Shown here one piece after another: positions 2 to 29,680 of a DNA stretch of 60,511 nt (positions are counted from its first letter, which is position 1; each line of letters begins with the position of its first letter). The DNA is taken from assembly GCA_027021785.1 (NCBI GenBank), contig JALUTR010000086.1, positions 1-60,511 on the forward strand. Reading direction: 5' to 3'. The notes beneath the pieces were generated by a model, which saw nothing but the letters and a program-made list of their open reading frames with translations, was not told the origin of the DNA and ran no database searches. Source of the stretch: Fidelibacterota bacterium. GTDB taxonomy: Bacteria; Fidelibacterota; Marinisomatia; Marinisomatales; JAADGP01. Position numbers and translations under genes: made by a program.

Positions 2-133
2 GATGATGATGACACGTCCACATTTGATGATGAAGCTGATTCCGAAGAAAAGCAGGCGGATGATACCGGTTCCGATGAGAGTGGGGAAAATAATAACAAC
101 GAAGAAAACGCCGCTTCTTCCGATACAAACTAA
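2..133 (+). CDS. 3' end of an unidentified CDS entering from the left edge (acidic D/E/N-rich tail)
   Basis: Frame 2 is open from the window edge to TAA at 131-133 (..DDDDTSTFDDEADSEEKQADDTGSDESGENNNNEENAASSDTN*). The sequence is low complexity and has no recognisable domain. Confidence 0.3.
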   Translation, partial: DDDDTSTFDDEADSEEKQADDTGSDESGENNNNEENAASSDTN

Positions 134-2936: not shown

Positions 2937-3856
2937 GTCCGGCTTTTCTTTTCCCCGGTCAGGCTTCTCAAAAAATCGGGATGGGAGCCGATCTGTATTT
3001 AAAAACCGAGTTGGGGAAACACCATTTTGACCGGGCAAATGAGATCATGGGCTATAATCTCCGGGATATCATTTTTAACGGTCCCGAAGAAGAGTTGAAG
3101 CAAACCCGGAATACACAGCCTGCCATTTATATCGTAAGTGTAATCATCGGTCAACTTTTGCTGGAAGGAGGGGTAATCCCCACGGCGGCGGCCGGGCACA
3201 GTTTGGGTGAATATTCGGCCCTGACAATTGCCGGAGCCTTTGACTACGAGACCGGTCTGACCCTGGTAAAACTTCGTGCTGAAAGCATGCAACAAGCCGG
3301 TGAAATGAATCCCGGTACAATGGCGGCAATTATTGGTCTGGATGATAACCTGGTGACACAACTTTGTTCGGAAAATTATGACGGCGGAATTGTTGTGGCA
3401 GCTAATTACAATGCGCCCGGACAGGTGGTAATTTCCGGAGAGACCCGTGCTGTCCACGAGGCGATGAACCGTTCAAAAGACAGGGGAGCCCGGAAAGCAA
3501 TAGAACTAAACGTAAGCGGGGCTTTCCATTCACCGCTCATGGCGCCGGCCCGAGAAGCCCTTGCAGAGAAATTGAATTCCATCGAAATTCGGGACACTAA
3601 TTTGCCTGTATACTCAAACGTTACAGCCGAACCGATAACAAATAGTGAAGAAATACGCACAGCGTTGATTCAACAATTGGAAAATCCGGTTCGCTGGCAC
3701 GAGACCATTACAAGAATGCGCGGAAATGGAATTTCCGAATTTCTGGAAGTCGGTCCGGGGAAAGTATTACAGGGATTAAATCGTCGGATTGACCGCCGAT
3801 TAACGATAAAAGGTGTTGAAAATTTAAAAGATCTTCAGGAATTCGAACATGTTTGA
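2933..3856 (+). CDS. fabD: malonyl-CoA:ACP transacylase
   Basis: 307 aa with FLFPGQASQKIGMG and the GHSLGEYSAL active-site motif. The TTG start overlaps the fabH stop. Confidence 0.95.
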   Translation: MSPAFLFPGQASQKIGMGADLYLKTELGKHHFDRANEIMGYNLRDIIFNGPEEELKQTRNTQPAIYIVSVIIGQLLLEGGVIPTAAAGHSLGEYSALTIAGAFDYETGLTLVKLRAESMQQAGEMNPGTMAAIIGLDDNLVTQLCSENYDGGIVVAANYNAPGQVVISGETRAVHEAMNRSKDRGARKAIELNVSGAFHSPLMAPAREALAEKLNSIEIRDTNLPVYSNVTAEPITNSEEIRTALIQQLENPVRWHETITRMRGNGISEFLEVGPGKVLQGLNRRIDRRLTIKGVENLKDLQEFEHV

Positions 3857-4595
3857 TTTATCGGATAAAATTGCTCTCATTACCGGCGCTTCGCGCGGAA
3901 TCGGTCTGGCGATCGCACAACAATTGGCACAGGCGGGAGCGATGGTAGTATGTGTCAGCAGGACCTTATCCGCGGTTGAAAAAGTCGCCGCCGATATGCA
4001 GGCAGAAGGTCTTAAAGCGGAAGCGTTTGCCTGTGATGTATCGGACATACAAACGGTTGACAAATTAGTAAAGTCCCTGGTCGGCCGGCATGGTCGCATT
4101 GATATATTGGTGAATAACGCCGGTATAACGCGGGACACATTGCTCCTGCGCATGTCGGAAAACGATTGGGATACGGTATTAAATATTAACTTAAAGGGCG
4201 CTTTCAATTGTGTCAAATCGGTTACGCGCCCGATGATGAAACAACGATCCGGGAAAATAATCAATATTTCTTCCATAGTGGGATTAATCGGCAACGCCGG
4301 ACAGGTAAACTACGCCGCTTCGAAGGCCGGGATAATCGGTCTTACCAAGGCCGCCGCTAAGGAATTGGCAGCACGCGGTATTACCGTAAATTGCATCGCC
4401 CCTGGATACATTGAAACCGATATGACAACCGATTTGCCGGAAAAAAACCGGGAAATGCTGTTAAAACAAATACCTTTAGGCAGAATCGGCAAAGCAAAGG
4501 ACATAGCCGTAATGGTACACTTCCTTGCCTCCGATGAAGCAAATTATATCACCGGGCAAACCTTTACGGTTGACGGTGGAATGGTTATGAATTAA
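3849..4595 (+). CDS. fabG: 3-oxoacyl-ACP reductase (SDR)
   Basis: 248 aa with TGASRGIG Rossmann motif, NNAG and YAASKAG catalytic motifs. It sits at the expected position in the fab cluster. Confidence 0.93.
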
Positions 4596-4857: not shown

Positions 4858-6102
4858 ATGAGCAAAAAACGGATAGTGATCACCGGACTGGGGGTATTGG
4901 CTCCCAATGGGAATAACGTTGATGAATACTGGTCAGCCTTATGTGCCGGGATGAGCGGAATTAATAATATCACAACATTTGATACTGAAAATTTCCCGGT
5001 TAAGTTCGCCGGCGAACTGACAGGTTTTGACCCGGAACAATTCCTTGAACCGCGTGAGATCCGGAAATTAGACCGCTTCTCGGTTTTGGCTTTGGTAGCA
5101 GCTCATGAAGCCATTACCCAGGCGGCCATTGATTGGGACACCATTGAAAAACACCGAATCGGTGTGACCCTGGGAACCGGTGTCGGAGGTATTCAAACTT
5201 TAGAGCAACAACATACCACAATATTAAATCGCGGGCCGCGCCGGGTATCTCCCCAGTTCGTTCCTAAAATGATTGCCAACATCGCCTCCGGTCAAATCGC
5301 TATTCGTTGGGGACTCCAGGGTCCCAACCAGACGGTAACTACAGCGTGCGCGTCGGCCACCGATGCCATCGGTGTCGCTACCCGACTCATTCAGGTTGGT
5401 GATGCGGATATGATTATTACCGGAGGGACGGAAGCCAGCATCACCCCCCTAACCATCGCCGGATTCGCCAATATGAAGGCTTTGTCAACCCGAAACGATT
5501 CCCCCACCGAAGCCAGTCGTCCTTTTGACAAGGATCGTGATGGTTTCGTTCTGGGAGAAGGAGCGGGCATTCTGGTCATCGAAACCGAAGAACATGCCCG
5601 CGCCCGAGGCGCGACAATTCTGGCGGAAATAGCCGGTTATGGTTCCACCAATGATGCTTTTCACATAACCCAGCCTGCCCCCGGAGGGGCGGGAGCCGTT
5701 ATGGCCATGAAAAGGGCAATCAGCGACGCGGGACTCACTCCGAAAGACGTCGATTACATCAATGCCCACGGGACTTCAACACCCTACAACGATAGGAATG
5801 AAACCGCGGCCATTAAGGAAGTGTTCGGTGAGTATGCGGCTTCCCTCAAAATCAGTTCCACCAAATCGATGACCGGGCATCTGCTTGGCGCCAGTGGGGC
5901 GATTGAGGCAATCGCCGCCATCAAGGCTATCGAAGACAACCTTGCTCCCCCTACCATTAATTATACCACCCCCGATCCGGAATGCGACCTGCATTACGTA
6001 CCCAATAAGGCGCAATCATTTCCAATTAACGTGGTAATGTCAAATACGTTCGGGTTCGGAGGACATAACGCGGTTGTATTAATTCGTCGCTGGAGTGCGT
6101 GA
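4858..6102 (+). CDS. fabF: 3-oxoacyl-ACP synthase II
   Basis: 414 aa with KAS I/II features: TACASATDAIG active-site Cys, INAHGTSTP, and the GHLLGASG and NTFGFGGHN C-terminal motifs. Confidence 0.95.
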   Translation: MSKKRIVITGLGVLAPNGNNVDEYWSALCAGMSGINNITTFDTENFPVKFAGELTGFDPEQFLEPREIRKLDRFSVLALVAAHEAITQAAIDWDTIEKHRIGVTLGTGVGGIQTLEQQHTTILNRGPRRVSPQFVPKMIANIASGQIAIRWGLQGPNQTVTTACASATDAIGVATRLIQVGDADMIITGGTEASITPLTIAGFANMKALSTRNDSPTEASRPFDKDRDGFVLGEGAGILVIETEEHARARGATILAEIAGYGSTNDAFHITQPAPGGAGAVMAMKRAISDAGLTPKDVDYINAHGTSTPYNDRNETAAIKEVFGEYAASLKISSTKSMTGHLLGASGAIEAIAAIKAIEDNLAPPTINYTTPDPECDLHYVPNKAQSFPINVVMSNTFGFGGHNAVVLIRRWSA

Positions 6103-6826: not shown

Positions 6827-7387
6827 TTAAGATTTCAATTCTTTGTTCAATTCTTTTATTTTATCCCGTAGTATAGCTGCCTTTTCGTACTCTTCCGCTT
6901 CGATAGCCGCTTGTAATTGGCTTTCCAATTTTTCCCGCGTGGGTTCTTCTTTGCGCAGAGATTCGGCAAGGGTTTCTTTCGGTATTTCCTCTACAACACT
7001 CGCCTCATCCATAACCTGATCGGCGACCAAAATCGGAGTATTCATTCGCAACGCGACCGCGATTGCGTCGCTTGGCCGGGCATCAATCGAACGTTTACCG
7101 ATCAGTTTACCCCTCAGCTCCATACGGGAATAAAAAACACCGTCGATCAGTTCCGTAATCTTGACGGCGACAAGTTTTCCCTCAATTTGACGAATGATGG
7201 AGCCGATCAGATCATGGGTCAAAGGGCGCGGGGTCTCCATATACTCCAGAGCAAGCGCAATCGATTGCGCTTCATAAGCCCCCACAATGACCGGTAGCTT
7301 GCGAATGCCGCTGATTTCCTTCAAAATTACAGCGTAACTACGGCTTGGAGGGTGGAATGATATTTTATCAACTTTTACAGCTATCAT
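6827..7387 (-). CDS. bifunctional nuclease (BFN/DUF151) family protein with C-terminal UVR motif
   Basis: 186 aa. LPVIVGAYEAQSIALALEYMETPRPLTHDL matches the BFN domain pattern as I recall it, and the tail EEYEKAAILRDKIKELN is UVR-like. Confidence 0.75.
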   Translation of the reverse strand: MIAVKVDKISFHPPSRSYAVILKEISGIRKLPVIVGAYEAQSIALALEYMETPRPLTHDLIGSIIRQIEGKLVAVKITELIDGVFYSRMELRGKLIGKRSIDARPSDAIAVALRMNTPILVADQVMDEASVVEEIPKETLAESLRKEEPTREKLESQLQAAIEAEEYEKAAILRDKIKELNKELKS

Positions 7388-24777: not shown

Positions 24778-25983
24778 TTACCCCTCATTCACAACCGTTA
24801 AAATGAATCCGTCATCCGGTTTCCGATCAATACCGGGCTTAAGTCCCCGGGTTTTCACTTCCCGGATGACGTTTTTAAGAGAATCAATATCGCCTAATTT
24901 GATCTTAATGGTCTCACCTACATTTAAATCCTCGATTACTTCCAGTGATTTTATTTTTGATATGGGACAAACATAGTCGCTCAGATCATATTCTTTTACC
25001 ACGGGTTCATCTTGCATCGTTTCCAGGACTTCTTTGTAAAAACCGGCATATTTGAAGGCGTCGTCCGGCGATATCACAACGGATAACCCTTTATTTGATT
25101 TTGCATATTGTAAAGCGGCATACAGTATGGCGCCGGTCGTAGGACCAACAAGCACCCCGTCTTTCCGGGCTAAATTCACGGCCGTCATAAAGGCATCTCT
25201 ATCCGTGACCTCGATGATATCGTCAACTACCGATTTATCAAGTATTTTTGGTACCAGATCTTCCGACAATCCGGTAATTCTCTTCATTCCCGGCAATTTA
25301 TGATTTATGGATGTCGGCTCAATGCCAATGATCTTAATATTCGGATTTTTCTCCTTCAGATATTTCCCGACCCCGGTTATCGTCCCGCAAGTACCAAATC
25401 CGGCGAAGAAATAATCGATTTTCCCTTCCGTCTGTTTCCATATCTCCGGTCCTGTCGTACGGTAATGGGCTTGTACATTCAACTCATTTTCATATTGGTT
25501 CGGGCTGACATATTTATCTCTTGTTGCCGGACTGTTAACGAGGGCATTGACCAATCCCCGGGCGCCTTCCGATGGAAATAAAGGACACAGTTCATCATCG
25601 GCTTCGTTTACCTTGGCGCCCATAAAATTCAACATCACCTTTTTCTCTTCCGGGATGCCCTCCGGGACAGCGATTTCGATCGGTATTCCCAGGGCATTGG
25701 CAATGCTTACCAAAGCAATCCCCGTATTCCCGGAAGACGGCTCGACAACGGTCTTTTCCCCGATTTCCAGGGCGCTCAACATTTCGTAAGCAATCCTGTC
25801 CTTAATCGAACCGAAAGGATTATATCGTTCCAGCTTCAGGAAAATATCAAAGTCGCTGTTTGGGTTAATCCGGTTTAATCTTACCAGCGGAGTCGGATTA
25901 TCCACATCGGCAATTAGTTGGATAATATTGGAATAAACCCTTAATTGATGATCAAATTCTATTTTCTTATTGTTACGTTCCAT
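24778..25983 (-). CDS. PLP-dependent cysteine synthase (CysK/CysM family) fused to a C-terminal TusA/SirA-like sulfur-carrier domain
   Basis: 401 aa with the PLP-Lys motif FGSIKDR and GFGTCGTITG. An extra approximately 80-aa C-terminus has LSDYVCPISKIKSLEVIEDLNVGETIKI, resembling the TusA CPxP-type motif. Confidence 0.85.
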   Translation of the reverse strand: MERNNKKIEFDHQLRVYSNIIQLIADVDNPTPLVRLNRINPNSDFDIFLKLERYNPFGSIKDRIAYEMLSALEIGEKTVVEPSSGNTGIALVSIANALGIPIEIAVPEGIPEEKKVMLNFMGAKVNEADDELCPLFPSEGARGLVNALVNSPATRDKYVSPNQYENELNVQAHYRTTGPEIWKQTEGKIDYFFAGFGTCGTITGVGKYLKEKNPNIKIIGIEPTSINHKLPGMKRITGLSEDLVPKILDKSVVDDIIEVTDRDAFMTAVNLARKDGVLVGPTTGAILYAALQYAKSNKGLSVVISPDDAFKYAGFYKEVLETMQDEPVVKEYDLSDYVCPISKIKSLEVIEDLNVGETIKIKLGDIDSLKNVIREVKTRGLKPGIDRKPDDGFILTVVNEG

Positions 25984-25998
25984 TGATTCCCCCTTACT

Positions 25999-26724
25999 CT
26001 ACTTTAATATTTGTGTATGGATACCGCATTCGCCGCCGCATTTACTCGTATTTATCCATCGTCCGTCTCTTTCAAGCTCGCCACCGATATGCGAACAAGT
26101 CTCACAACCAAGGGACCGGTACCCCAATCCATACCAGGGATGGGGGTCGATTCCGCGCGTTGAGATGTATCGCCAAATCTCAGCTTCAGTGAAAGTCAGA
26201 ATCGGATTTATTTTGACAAGGCCACCCTTGCTTTCGATCTCCCGGTAATCTTTTCTGGTCCGCCCCTCCGTATTTCTTAACCCGCAAATCCAGGCGTCCA
26301 ATTCGCTGACGGCTAATTTTGTGGGGTAGACTTTCAACAACCGGCAACACTCATCCGGATCCGCTTCATAAATCTCCTTTCCCGTTTCGGCTTTGACCTG
26401 TAAAGATTTATTGTCAAACTCATCCGTCGGTAATAAAATCACGTTTAGGGAGCTATCCCGAAGAGCCTCCGGAACACGATCGGCTACGATGTAAACGGTT
26501 GTATTCAGATTCCATTTTGAGTTCATCAGCCGGAGATACAGGAAGGTTACCCGCGGTTTATACACCGTCATTACGGCAAAGACTTTTATTTCCGGATCCA
26601 CCTCTCTTGCCAGATGGAGAGTCACCATGCTGTCTTTTCCGAAAGAACAAGCTACCGCCACTCTTTCGTAGGTATTTATCGCCGACTCAATCAGCTCTTT
26701 CGCGCGTTTAATTTTTTCTTCCAC
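25999..26724 (-). CDS. cysH: adenylylsulfate/phosphoadenylylsulfate reductase (CysH family, Fe-S type)
   Basis: 241 aa with the SFGKDSMV PP-loop-like motif, the CC..CETC cysteine pattern (ECCRLL, GCETCS) and the C-terminal ECGIH motif. Confidence 0.87.
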   Translation of the reverse strand: MEEKIKRAKELIESAINTYERVAVACSFGKDSMVTLHLAREVDPEIKVFAVMTVYKPRVTFLYLRLMNSKWNLNTTVYIVADRVPEALRDSSLNVILLPTDEFDNKSLQVKAETGKEIYEADPDECCRLLKVYPTKLAVSELDAWICGLRNTEGRTRKDYREIESKGGLVKINPILTFTEAEIWRYISTRGIDPHPWYGLGYRSLGCETCSHIGGELERDGRWINTSKCGGECGIHTQILK

Positions 26725-26727
26725 TTT

Positions 26728-28332
26728 TCACCATTTATTATCACAAAATGCGAATTGTTCACTGGGGAGAATCATTTCTTTTAATCCCTCGACGCCGATT
26801 TCATCCAGAATAGTGGCAACATTCACGCCTCTCTCTTTCACAATGCGCAAGCATCTTTCCGTAACTTCGAGCGTTTCCTCGTCCGTCAGAAATTCGGCGA
26901 TCACTTCTCCCAACCGCGTGTCCTCACCTTCTTTGCCCCCTACCAATATGGAGAATCCTTTTTGTTCTTCCAGGATCGCGTCAAAGGGGCAGACCGCGAT
27001 GCATTGACCGCAATGTCGGCATTCATTTTCATTGATCACGGCAATATCGGCGATCATATCGATCGCTTCCCTCTTACACACATCCAAACAAAGTTCACAA
27101 CCAACACAATCGCTCTCGCTCACCGCCGGTTTTGCCACCCCGATATAACCAATATCATTAATATGGGAAATCCCACAGGAATTCGGACAGCCGGAACCCG
27201 ATATTTTTATGTTCAAATTATTTAAACCCAACTCCTCCACCTTACGTTCGACTTTTCGCAGGAAGGGTTGGGTACTGGCATTGCTTTCGGTACAATATTC
27301 ACCGAAACAGGATTGCAAATTGTCAATTCCCCTGTCCAGTATCTGCAGGCCCGCCGCCGCCAATCTTTCCCGTATGATTTCCAGATATTGCGTATCCACA
27401 TAAGGGATTTCAGGAGCGCCCCGTACCGCGAAATGAACAAATCCATGTCCATACTTTTCGGAAATATCGGCGATTTCCCTTAACTGGTTTGAAGTTATTT
27501 CCCCGCACGTGGCGCGAATTTTCAAAATCATTTTATTGGTTGCGATTTCTTTCGTGCCGGTTGCGCAGGGAACCGGTTCAACAGGCGGTCGTTGATGCAA
27601 ATCCGTGTTCAGGACCTGCTTCACGTATTCCACACCAAGCCTCTTAATCAGGTGTGAACCCCTTTCTCCCTTTTTTCCTTCATGACGGATTAATTCGAAG
27701 TAATTCTGAACAAAACGCACCGCTTCATCTTCGGAAATCCCACCGGCCATTTTCACACCCACAGAGGGGTTTACCCCTAACATTCCGCCGACATATACGT
27801 CGTAATAACCTTGCTTGCCCTCTTGCGCCACACCAATAAAGCTGATATCATTCAATACCCGGGAAATGATGCAGTCATTCTTACAACCGGCCACACCGAT
27901 TTTTATCTTGTGGAGAATAGGGTCGCGGAAATAGTTCTCAAGTTTCTCAGCCAGGGATATGGAATCGGTAACGGCATCGGGACAGATCGTGTTGCTGTAG
28001 CAAACATTGATATTTCTCACGCGGGGTCCGCACCGGTCCAATTCCAAATAAACCCGACTCAGTTCTTTTTTAACCTGCTCGACATCATTTAAATGAATAT
28101 GGGGAATAATCGGTATTTGCCTGGTACTGAATAAAAGATATCCCCGGGCGTATTGATCGGTAATGTCCGCGATTTTAACCAATTGCTCGGAATTCAGATT
28201 ACAGCAAGCGGTTTTTATCCATACCGAATACATATCGGGGTCTTTCAGCTTTACCACCCCGCCCTTTCTTAAAGCTTCCACATCTATCTTCGGTTTACGA
28301 GTCTTATTGTTTGTATCCATCTTCTTTTTCAT
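26728..28332 (-). CDS. sulfite reductase-like protein: two fused nitrite/sulfite-reductase modules with an inserted 2x[4Fe-4S] ferredoxin domain
   Basis: 534 aa. Siroheme/Fe-S Cys motifs occur in both halves (CYSNTIC..CKNDC and CFGEYC..CPNSC). The ferredoxin motifs are CVGCELCLDVC and CRHCGQCIAVCP. It is the first gene of the operon with cysH and cysteine synthase. Confidence 0.8.
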   Translation of the reverse strand: MKKKMDTNNKTRKPKIDVEALRKGGVVKLKDPDMYSVWIKTACCNLNSEQLVKIADITDQYARGYLLFSTRQIPIIPHIHLNDVEQVKKELSRVYLELDRCGPRVRNINVCYSNTICPDAVTDSISLAEKLENYFRDPILHKIKIGVAGCKNDCIISRVLNDISFIGVAQEGKQGYYDVYVGGMLGVNPSVGVKMAGGISEDEAVRFVQNYFELIRHEGKKGERGSHLIKRLGVEYVKQVLNTDLHQRPPVEPVPCATGTKEIATNKMILKIRATCGEITSNQLREIADISEKYGHGFVHFAVRGAPEIPYVDTQYLEIIRERLAAAGLQILDRGIDNLQSCFGEYCTESNASTQPFLRKVERKVEELGLNNLNIKISGSGCPNSCGISHINDIGYIGVAKPAVSESDCVGCELCLDVCKREAIDMIADIAVINENECRHCGQCIAVCPFDAILEEQKGFSILVGGKEGEDTRLGEVIAEFLTDEETLEVTERCLRIVKERGVNVATILDEIGVEGLKEMILPSEQFAFCDNKW

Positions 28333-28344
28333 CTGTTACGTTAT

Positions 28345-28378
28345 AAAAAAGCCCCTTCATTTGTGCTGGTGAAGGGGC
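28345..28378 (-). terminator. intrinsic terminator/attenuator 1, ending 12 nt before the sulfite-reductase ATG
   Basis: Minus strand: GCCCCUUCA-CCAGCACAAA-UGAAGGGGC followed by UUUUUU. Confidence 0.65.
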
Positions 28379-28450
28379 TTGATTGATCAAATTTTGATTG
28401 TACGGTTACACCGGCACAAGTCCCCTTGCTTTTATCATACAACAACAACC
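28345..28450 (-). promoter_or_regulatory. leader element unit 1 (candidate riboswitch/attenuator)
   Basis: It is paralogous to unit 2. It has the conserved 5' UUGUUGUUGUAUG, a GGA-loop hairpin, the 17-nt block GGACUUGUGCCGGUGUA, and a terminator. Confidence 0.55.
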
Positions 28451-28534
28451 GGGCTTTCCGTTAATCATCATTTTATGATTGTTTCGCACTTTATTATGTT
28501 CTCTTATTCTTTTTCTGATCCAATATCTTTTAAT

Positions 28535-28566
28535 AAAAAACCCTCTCACTTGTGCTGATGAAAGGG
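28535..28566 (-). terminator. intrinsic terminator/attenuator 2
   Basis: Minus strand: CCCUUUCA-UCAGCACAAG-UGAGAGGG followed by UUUUUU. Confidence 0.6.
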
Positions 28567-28637
28567 TTTTTAACAATCATATTTTGTATACCTCTACACC
28601 GGCACAAGTCCGCTTGTGTCTACCATACAACAACAAT
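28535..28637 (-). promoter_or_regulatory. leader element unit 2 (candidate riboswitch/attenuator)
   Basis: It has the same architecture as unit 1 and lies about 190 nt further upstream. Confidence 0.55.
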
Positions 28638-28762
28638 TTTTTCTCTTGCAGATCATTATTTTTTTATTCATTAAAATTTCGTGGTGGAAAGTTAATATCC
28701 TTTTTACCGGGGTTACAAATATTTTTACAAATAATGGAATTTTGCAGCTCACACATCACGTT

Positions 28763-29680
28763 TCATTCCACATCACCGATTACCCGCCTTAGCAAACCGT
28801 CATTTTTTTCAAGGAAAGATTTCGCCTTATTCAAACCGCAATTTTTCCGTGCCATCACGATAGCGGTTTTCACCGACCCTTCGGCCCGGTAAAGATATTC
28901 CTGTGCTTCGTCGTAATCCAGACCGGTTAATTGTTCGATGATGCGCGTTCCGCGATCGACCAACTTATTATTCACAACCTGCAAATCCACCATCAGATTC
29001 CCATATACTTTGCCGATTCGAATCATGGTCGTTGTGGATATCATATTCAACACCATCTTGGTCGCGGTTCCCGATTTCATCCGCGTCGAACCGGTAATGA
29101 TTTCCGGGCCCACATCCACTGCGATCAATACGTCAACCTCCACCGGCACCAACGGTTTGGGATTGCAGATCATGTAAACCGTAGACGTCCCGACAGAGCG
29201 ACCGTATTCCAACGCCGCTACTACATAAGGGGTAGCGCTGCTGCTGGCGATGCCGAATACCAGGTCACCGGCCTCCACCCCGGCGGCCTTCAAATCCCGT
29301 ATGGCGTCTTCCGGTTTATCTTCGGCGCCTTCGATGGAACGAACAAGCGCTTCCCGCCCCCCGGCGATGATTCCCTGAAACCAGTCCCGCGGCGCGGAAT
29401 ATGTGGGCGGCATTTCCGTGGCATCCAGGACCCCTAACCGTCCGCTGGTCCCGGCGCCGACATAAAATATACGGTGACCATTCCTGATGGTCTTAACAGC
29501 CAGTTCGACGGCCCGCGCTATTTCCGGGATGACTTTATTAATCGCCCCGGCGATGGACTGATCCTCCCCGTTAATAATGGTCAATATTTCCGGTATTGAT
29601 CGCTTGTCGATTTGATGAGAATTCGGGTTCTGCTGTTCGGTGGTCAGATCTTTGCGGTTTCTCATTTGTTGTTCATCCAT
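28763..29680 (-). CDS. murQ: N-acetylmuramic acid 6-phosphate etherase
   Basis: 305 aa SIS-domain protein. LTTEQQNPNSHQID..GRIFYVGAGTSGRLGVLDATEMPPTY is typical of MurQ. Confidence 0.9.
   Translation of the reverse strand: MDEQQMRNRKDLTTEQQNPNSHQIDKRSIPEILTIINGEDQSIAGAINKVIPEIARAVELAVKTIRNGHRIFYVGAGTSGRLGVLDATEMPPTYSAPRDWFQGIIAGGREALVRSIEGAEDKPEDAIRDLKAAGVEAGDLVFGIASSSATPYVVAALEYGRSVGTSTVYMICNPKPLVPVEVDVLIAVDVGPEIITGSTRMKSGTATKMVLNMISTTTMIRIGKVYGNLMVDLQVVNNKLVDRGTRIIEQLTGLDYDEAQEYLYRAEGSVKTAIVMARKNCGLNKAKSFLEKNDGLLRRVIGDVE

Follow-up and report, generated by a model that had tools for sequence, protein, structure and literature searches.

The stretch of DNA analysed here, 60,511 nt of contig JALUTR010000086.1 from a Fidelibacterota bacterium (the window), carries a sir-cysH-cysK/TusA operon encoding a sulfite/nitrite-reductase-family hemoprotein with a ferredoxin domain, a PAPS/APS reductase (CysH) and a cysteine synthase fused to TusA, preceded by two paralogous leader units which are the subject of this work; units and operon are all read on the minus strand (Table 1). 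The NCBIfam scores of the operon proteins are at family level, under the equivalog cut-offs. Both units contain the same parts in the same order, namely the 5' motif UUGUUGUUGUAUG continued by (G/A)UA at the very start of each unit, a short hairpin with GGA in its loop, the 17-nt block GGACUUGUGCCGGUGUA, which is the same in both units with no difference, a spacer of 37 nt that is not conserved, and a GC-rich hairpin followed by U6, the terminator loops of the two units being CAGCACAA and CCAGCACAAA. A repeat search returned a direct repeat of 42 nt spanning both units (88% identity, spacing 188 nt), and an exact repeat of 17 nt would, by our own estimate, be expected by chance roughly 1e-5 times in about 550 nt. 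These sequence features had been described in an original prediction made from the letters of the window, and all of them were found in place on the minus strand. As only 12 nt separate the proximal U-run from the ATG at 28332, transcription of the operon has to cross the terminator. The gene upstream of the units, on the same strand, is murQ.

Table 1. Positions of the operon, leader units, leader open reading frames (ORFs), pairing regions and terminators in the window, and alignment columns of the three helices (asterisk, stop codon; Cys, cysteine)
Feature	Position	Strand	Remarks
Operon sir-cysH-cysK/TusA	24778..28332	(-)	Pfam, NCBIfam
Sulfite/nitrite-reductase-family hemoprotein with ferredoxin domain	28332-26728	(-)	Pfam, NCBIfam
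PAPS/APS reductase CysH	26724-25999	(-)	Pfam, NCBIfam
Cysteine synthase fused to TusA	25983-24778	(-)	Pfam, NCBIfam
Distal unit	28637-28535	(-)	about 105 nt
Distal leader ORF MNKKIMICKRKNCCCMVDTSGLVPV*	28594..28671	(-)	ATG 28671, TAG 28596-28594; frame analysis
Distal regulatory codons UGU UGU UGU (Cys-Cys-Cys)	28627..28635	(-)	
Distal GGA-loop hairpin CACAAG-CGGA-CUUGUG	28618-28603	(-)	
Distal region 1 (CACAAG)	28613..28618	(-)	5' arm of 1:2 hairpin
Distal region 2 (CUUGUGCCGGUG)	28597..28608	(-)	final four sense codons of leader ORF
Distal region 3 (CAUCAGCACAAG)	28549..28560	(-)	top of terminator 5' arm, loop and first 3'-arm base
Distal intrinsic terminator	28535..28567	(-)	hairpin 28567-28540, U-run 28540-28535; RNAfold -13.2 kcal/mol
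Proximal unit	28450-28345	(-)	about 105 nt
Proximal leader ORF MMINGKPGCCCMIKARGLVPV*	28406..28471	(-)	ATG 28471 or 28468, TAA 28408-28406; frame analysis
Proximal regulatory codons UGU UGU UGU (Cys-Cys-Cys)	28439..28447	(-)	
Proximal GGA-loop hairpin GCAAG-GGGA-CUUGU	28429-28416	(-)	
Proximal region 1 (GCAAG)	28425..28429	(-)	
Proximal region 2 (CUUGUGCCGGUG)	28409..28420	(-)	runs up to stop codon
Proximal region 3 (CACCAGCACAAA)	28360..28371	(-)	
Proximal intrinsic terminator	28345..28378	(-)	hairpin 28378-28351, U-run 28350-28345; RNAfold -16.3 kcal/mol
1:2 hairpin	columns 27-32 / 37-42		
2:3 antiterminator	columns 37-48 / 88-99		
3:4 terminator	columns 81-90 / 99-108		

Within the UUGUUGUUGUAUG motif lies the frame U-UGU-UGU-UGU-AUG, reading Cys-Cys-Cys-Met (Met, methionine), which is open from an ATG in both window units and specifies leader peptides of 20-25 amino acids (aa), MMINGKPGCCCMIKARGLVPV in the proximal unit and M(NKKIM)ICKRKNCCCMVDTSGLVPV in the distal unit, where an alternative ATG at 28656 would give MICKRKN... 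and where an additional Cys codon, UGC, is present at 28650-28648. The stop codon of each leader ORF is directly 3' of the conserved block CUUGUGCCGGUG, hereafter region 2. Cysteine makes up 20% of the distal leader peptide, and 15-30% of leader residues across the units collected below, compared with 1.2% in the 35 long ORFs of the window (binomial P per peptide, 2e-3 to 1e-7). Over the last five codons all synonymous sites are the same between the two window units while the preceding codons differ, a pattern that indicates a probable constraint at the level of the RNA and not of the peptide.

Homologues were sought by way of the sulfite reductase, in genome contigs and in protein-database matches traced to their contigs, and in one metagenome scan, and the element was found at eight loci (the window, L001, L003, L006, L026, L030, L031/L032 and L038), with two units upstream of sir-cysH-cysK in 8/8. 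The motif is thus present upstream of homologous operons in two clades, the kind of place where the original prediction had proposed to search for it. The first clade is formed by the window and L001, an 'FCB group bacterium' metagenome-assembled genome (MAG) whose sulfite reductase is 92% identical to that of the window and in which the orthologues of the distal and proximal leader ORFs are MNCKRKNCCCMVDSRGLVPV and MINGNAGCCCMMKARGLVLV, and the second by the remaining loci, with a sulfite reductase 61% identical (L006 being a Candidatus Marinimicrobia MAG). Alignment A1, on which the counts below are based, holds 14 units from 7 loci; the eighth locus, L038, is outside this set and its layout matches. 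The same layout was found in 14/14 units: a run of two or three Cys codons (CC or CCC), 9-10 codons, the stop codon, 52-57 nt and the U-run. Extra Cys residues near the run are frequent in the leaders of relatives (for example CxCC and CICNICCC), and the remainder of the peptide diverges. The leader ORFs favour the wobble-read Cys codon UGU, with 44 UGU and 15 UGC in the 14 units, which are non-independent samples, versus 88 TGT and 98 TGC in the long ORFs.

A Met codon follows the Cys run directly in 8/14 units (CCCM or CCM; 28626-28624 and 28438-28436 on the minus strand in the window), and in units without CCCM or CCM it stands mostly two and four codons further on, each leader having 0-2 internal Met in about 20 residues. 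Met beside the Cys run may be regulatory as well, responding to the other sulfur amino acid.

When a covariance model was built from the 10 units of the L003 clade alone, it recognised both window units, with scores of 65.0 and 64.3 bits and rough E-values of 6e-12 and 9e-12, and both L001 units too, the next best match in 126 kb scoring 23.7 bits, and this recovery of the window and L001 units by the model of the other clade places both clades in one family. The upstream neighbour varies by locus, being murQ in the window, an aminotransferase gene in L030 and a divergent gene in L031, and as the units stay with the sir operon though this neighbour changes, they belong to the downstream operon. 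Known families were searched for with Rfam, as the original prediction had advised, and its failure to recognise a known class was borne out: no family reached the gathering score anywhere in the 60.5-kb window, and in a permissive scan of 27800-29200 the best matches covered the terminators only (for example Yfr10, E = 0.13), with Trp_leader at E = 5.2. A generic scan of all collected sequence for terminators preceded by a short ORF containing a Cys run returned these units and a single chance match antisense in a gene, namely a Cys-leader candidate (..VVCCCSKV* with a hairpin and T-run, window 5125-5300 on the minus strand, at 5213(-)) that was rejected as it is antisense within a 414-aa ORF at 4858-6102(+). 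The metagenome scan was made with the pattern AYCRGYAYAARTRARRGGGNTTTT, which describes the terminator loop and 3' arm only and hence is without bias towards Cys codons; it gave 20 matches of which L026 was the sole true member, the others looking like chance, and the element family is rare in the metagenome collection scanned. The element was missing from the sir homologues of other lineages with 56-66% identity (L002, L004, L005, L007-L009 and L033-L037), and several of these non-carrier operons had an Rrf2 gene or a short intergenic region instead, the Rrf2-family regulator gene lying directly upstream of sir/cysH/cysK at L007:2379-2885, L008:1461-1904 and L036:1-249.

The alternative pairings of the units were examined in alignment A1 by counting pairs per cell, with controls in which the partner was slid by 1-3 columns (shuffle controls are not to be read as probabilities). 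Region 2 has alternative partners in either region 1 or region 3, the latter being the upper 5' arm and loop of the terminator. The 1:2 hairpin was paired in 85.7% of cells, the 2:3 antiterminator in 88.7% and the 3:4 terminator in 97.1%, with double changes in 3, 4 and 3 pairs respectively, compared with only 25-66% of cells in the slid controls. Compensatory changes were therefore found in all three helices, and the mutually exclusive pairings of the original prediction, with its view of the units as paralogous leaders or attenuators each ending in an intrinsic terminator, are supported. In the window units the complementarity of CUUGUGCCGGUG to the terminator loop and flanking stem bases amounts to 10-11 of 12 pairs, and the free energies are -4.5 (proximal) and -6.0 (distal) kcal/mol for 1:2, -12 for 2:3 and -13.6/-15.4 for 3:4. 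Conservation of the loop, which had been singled out as unexpected for a plain terminator, is accounted for by its pairing with the 17-nt block, the loop being region 3. The antiterminator gains three further pairs in most units, in which bases around the stop codon join the terminator 5' arm, and in the proximal unit of L001 a C-to-U change in region 2 turns an internal C.A mismatch into a U-A pair, taking the 2:3 energy from -12.0 to -16.7 kcal/mol. Pairing of the purine-rich GGA stretch with the terminator 5' arm as a second antiterminator was also tried and rejected, being no better than the slid controls and showing no covariation.

Across the units the terminator hairpins range from -13 to -21 kcal/mol and are followed by U6-U9. 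RNAalifold, run on full-length units with no input structure, predicted the terminator, and when run on transcripts reaching from after region 1 to before the 3' arm it predicted the 2:3 helix, 4 of whose 8 pairs were compensatory; in single-sequence folds of the shortened transcripts 2:3 was the minimum free energy structure in most units. Full-length minimum free energy folds gave the terminator every time, the antiterminator appearing only in truncated, co-transcriptional folds, as would be expected of a kinetic switch.

As the conserved 5' motif consists of Cys codons in a short ORF whose stop abuts region 2, the ribosome, responding to the supply of Cys-tRNA(Cys), is the likely sensor, and we consider it very probable that the two units are tandem ribosome-mediated (leader-peptide) cysteine attenuators of the sir-cysH-cysK/TusA operon. 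What marks a ribosome-mediated attenuator is a terminator behind a short ORF rich in codons for the end product of the operon. All 14 units have, in the leader of a biosynthetic operon, an ORF with a start and an in-frame stop; it contains consecutive codons for the end product of the operon (UGU x3 in the window, CC or CCC in relatives), the leader ORF is separated from the first gene by an intrinsic terminator, and an antiterminator exclusive of the terminator makes use of the 3' end of the leader ORF. The original prediction had named ribosome-dependent attenuation as only one of three options and leaned towards a riboswitch of a new class or a protein sensor of the CsrA type; its attenuator stands, and its emphasis does not, having overlooked three in-frame Cys codons in a short ORF with a stop that abuts region 2 in 14/14 units.

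The mechanism that we propose was laid out on the alignment with standard bacterial ribosome dimensions, the footprints being our own estimate. With Cys-tRNA(Cys) plentiful, the ribosome would pass the Cys codons and reach the stop, and, once the stop codon occupied its A site, would span approximately columns 34-61, masking region 2 and its extension; region 3 would then be free for region 4, the terminator would form and transcription would stop at the U-run. With Cys-tRNA(Cys) scarce, the ribosome would stall on the Cys run, 9-10 codons upstream, where it would stand at region 1 or immediately ahead of it (from the last Cys codon it would also touch the first bases of region 1), leaving region 2 exposed to capture region 3, with the 3-bp arm extension, before the 3' arm is made. 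Formation of 2:3 would bar the terminator and RNA polymerase would continue into the operon. The 1:2 hairpin would take up region 2 after release of the ribosome and could possibly also act as a pause hairpin. As two units stand in series, their read-through probabilities would multiply, giving a lower basal level and a sharper response. We infer the ribosome stalling, the direction and size of the regulation and the presence of both units on one transcript.

Several observations weigh against this mechanism or against parts of it. Neither hairpin was called by a simple terminator scan, so that the terminator assignment rests on RNAfold energy and conservation. The 1:2 hairpin is weak in the window units, as given above, and in the L003 clade its common register is unfavourable for the distal units, which form it in a shifted register, so that either termination or read-through may be the outcome without translation. 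The 1:2 helix begins 9 nt downstream of the last Cys codon and, by the footprint estimate, a ribosome on the first Cys codon would stop short of region 1, which would come within reach only from the last. The partners of the antiterminator are mostly the terminator loop and upper stem and not the entire 5' arm, and it is on steric grounds that a 12-bp helix of loop and upper stem would block closure of the lower stem. The units represent approximately four independent lineages, a small and related sample, drawn entirely from uncultured MAGs, whose covariation is consistent though modest. A search for Shine-Dalgarno sequences at the leader ORFs found none, and we infer their translation solely from the conserved frame and stop. 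No promoter was recognisable by a simple sigma-70 consensus scan.

Upstream of the distal leader ORF a block is shared with L001, (A/G)TTTGTAACCCCGGTAAAAAG..TATTAACTT.CC.CCACGA (window approximately 28745-28690 on the minus strand, L001:3595-3650; the TTTGTAACCCCGGTAAAAAG..TATTAAC part at approximately 28730-28700), in which the motif ATTTGTAA occurs twice in the window, 15 nt start to start, and this block is a candidate promoter or operator. At the other end of the leader, the sir start may lie at 28320 (MDTN...), an ATG that is conserved, L001 having GTG at the position of the 28332 ATG; the tblastn match to sir begins at residue 5, and a start at 28320 would leave 24 nt instead of 12 nt after the U-run.

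Three further elements were observed in the relatives. In the second clade the proximal ORF is open for approximately 55-65 codons (L003:3779-3946, L006:3587-3757, L030:2740-2907, L031:2721-2903 and L038:1401-1598), is called a hypothetical protein by gene callers and has a conserved N-terminal part (..IGFN..PG..IVLTGEIRHDMKMND..) with substitutions by codon position of 68/61/108, which suggests that it may be translated as a longer Cys-rich micro-protein; a protein search with the 55-aa ORF returned itself and one near-identical relative (L038), with no homologues outside this locus type. In L026 (reverse complement, approximately 6986-7170) the space between the two units holds a segment of approximately 185 nt that recurs, 84% identical, between the proximal unit and sir in L006 (approximately 3820-4002). 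The opposite strand of this segment bears a small conserved ORF (MCE(K/E)KR.KICLIKAGNAVNS...), and the segment may represent a mobile or transposed small gene. Approximately 330 nt upstream of the sulfite reductase gene in L002, a Planctomycetota MAG, there is a 20-aa Cys/Met-rich leader, MAMCPCMMMKSPAFLWRGVV* (L002:918-1055 on the plus strand), whose 3' part UCUCUGGAGGGGU forms a 14-bp antiterminator with the 5' arm of a strong terminator and which was the fifth, weak match of model R1 (E = 0.011); L033 is a relative whose contig begins within the terminator. The L002 leader looks unrelated to the window element and may be an independent sulfur-amino-acid attenuator of a homologous operon, and we count it as support for reading the window units as Cys attenuators.

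Other explanations could be offered for the units. The Cys-rich peptides could themselves be functional, as metal- or sulfur-binding peptides or precursors of a modified peptide, with terminators of their own and beside the operon by chance, an explanation to which the approximately 55-aa proximal ORF of the L003 clade, with its third-codon-position excess and its annotation by gene callers, lends some weight but which we find unlikely, as the window-clade peptides are 20-25 aa long and divergent save for the Cys run and the C-terminal codons, and those codons are conserved at synonymous sites too. The terminator loop moreover co-varies with the 3' end of the ORF, for which a plain gene terminator offers no reason, the 12 nt before the operon leave no room for a promoter so that read-through is required, and the peptides have no homologues outside this locus type.

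GGA or AGG is present in or beside the 1:2 loop in 14/14 units, as a protein-dependent attenuator would have it, in which a CsrA-like or TRAP-like protein on the GGA loops would stabilise 1:2 and promote termination. There is, however, one GGA site per unit, within the leader ORF and approximately 75 nt or more from the sir start, which is not the arrangement of CsrA/Rsm targets, the purine-rich stretch belongs to codons for Gly, Arg or Glu, and the GGA loops show no specific covariation with other parts of the element, their pairing with the terminator 5' arm being at slid-control level. No candidate gene for a binding protein is linked at any locus, and with the Cys codons and the conservation of frame also left unexplained we regard this explanation as very unlikely. 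More improbable still is a metabolite-binding riboswitch with an aptamer in each unit for cysteine, sulfide, O-acetylserine or a related ligand. It would share with the attenuator the covarying alternative pairings with the terminator and the site upstream of a cysteine-synthesis operon, and the lack of a match to any known family would suit a new class, but Cys codons, frame, stop and the helices 2:3 and 3:4 suffice to explain which nucleotides are conserved, conservation is absent from the 37-nt spacer, RNAalifold predicted no multi-helix junction or conserved unpaired pocket, and the invariant stop after region 2 and the fixed spacing of 9-10 codons in 14/14 units would have no role. Plain tandem terminators or insulators of murQ with short ORFs by chance, for which both hairpins are suitably downstream of murQ on the same strand, are scarcely credible given that the units track the sir operon where the upstream gene differs or is divergent, keep the ORF/Cys-run/stop geometry in 14/14 units and have a covarying antiterminator.

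Read as tandem cysteine attenuators, the units may be compared with the classical leader-peptide attenuators of the Yanofsky model, E. coli trpL, hisL, pheL, thrL, leuL and ilvL. Like these they have a short leader ORF rich in end-product codons, the 1:2, 2:3 and 3:4 helices with a U-run, a stop placed for masking of region 2 by the terminating ribosome and a comparable distance from stop to U-run. Unlike them they would sense cysteine, occur in the FCB group/Marinimicrobia lineage and form two full units in tandem, with no sequence or Rfam relationship (Trp_leader at the E-value given above); the regulatory codons here are just upstream of region 1 and not within it, and the antiterminator forms mainly on the terminator loop and upper stem. 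Tandem arrangements also have precedents, as tandem T-boxes and tandem riboswitches exist. In the Salmonella mgtCBR leader, the tandem short ORFs mgtM and mgtP sense ATP and proline-charged tRNA (PMC3641672), which is likewise two leader units in series before one operon with short ORFs in both, whereas the units here are paralogues with the same Cys codons, by which one signal would be multiplied.

The novelty implied by the original prediction, which knew of no Cys-responsive RNA regulator, does not hold, as leader ORFs with Cys codons are on record. They were predicted in Mycobacterium, Propionibacterium and Bifidobacterium, without conserved intrinsic terminators (Seliverstov et al. 2005, PMC1262725). 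The polycysteine leaderless short ORFs (sORFs) of M. smegmatis (Ms5788A) act by translational attenuation through unmasking of a downstream ribosome-binding site, as shown by Canestrari et al. 2020 (bioRxiv 10.1101/834739), and such mycobacterial sORFs are cited as translational attenuation in PMC13236596. They resemble the present units in having consecutive Cys codons upstream of cysteine-metabolism operons and in sensing Cys-tRNA supply by ribosome pausing, and differ in being leaderless and translational, each unit here having a strong terminator and an antiterminator, with unrelated sequence; compared with the leaderless sORFs described, the ATGs here are well within the intergenic region and have conserved sequence before them. 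In Rhodobacterales, uORFC-8-2 upstream of cysS is a predicted terminator-type ribosome-mediated attenuator (Brewer et al. 2021, PMC8632094), and like the present units it is predicted to act on transcription, with two tandem Cys codons in its upstream ORF and a terminal U-run or terminator stem. By its description it is set apart as a single, alphaproteobacterial unit controlling cysteinyl-tRNA synthetase, with its Cys codons at peptide positions 14-15 inside the first stem; the Cys run here occupies codons 8-10 or 9-11 (13-15 when counted from the first ATG of the distal unit), outside the stem. The element is unrelated in sequence to the Cys leaders and attenuators described (uORFC-8-2 being compared by description only) and is the same kind of device, the differences lying in gene context, lineage and the conserved paralogous tandem layout. 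No Cys attenuator for a sulfite-reductase/cysteine-synthase operon, and no such element in Marinimicrobia or the FCB group, was described in the literature searched.

These findings most likely describe a known mechanism in a new lineage and not a new riboswitch, and a simpler, testable reading replaces that of a new cysteine riboswitch. Mechanistically it is unsurprising, though as an example from an uncultured lineage it is clean and conserved well, and in the literature searched we found no description of gene regulation in uncultured FCB-group/Marinimicrobia bacteria. The stronger claim, that this two-stage multiplicative switch is the first classical terminator/antiterminator attenuator for a cysteine/sulfate-assimilation biosynthetic operon, in a phylum-level lineage without a cultured model, we hold to be unlikely. 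Further layers may exist, in that the Met codons by the Cys run may integrate both sulfur amino acids, to which the L002 leader likewise points, and that the proximal leader of the second clade may have grown into a Cys-rich micro-protein of approximately 55 aa with a function of its own. As an Rrf2 gene stands beside homologous operons elsewhere, the same operon has acquired different regulatory solutions. For annotation, where a sir gene is preceded by a Cys-rich short 'hypothetical protein', the latter is likely to be a regulatory leader, and the tandem layout kept in two clades offers a natural case for the dose-response of serial attenuators. If the units do act in this way, cysteine and assimilatory sulfate reduction would join the operons under textbook terminator/antiterminator leader peptides.

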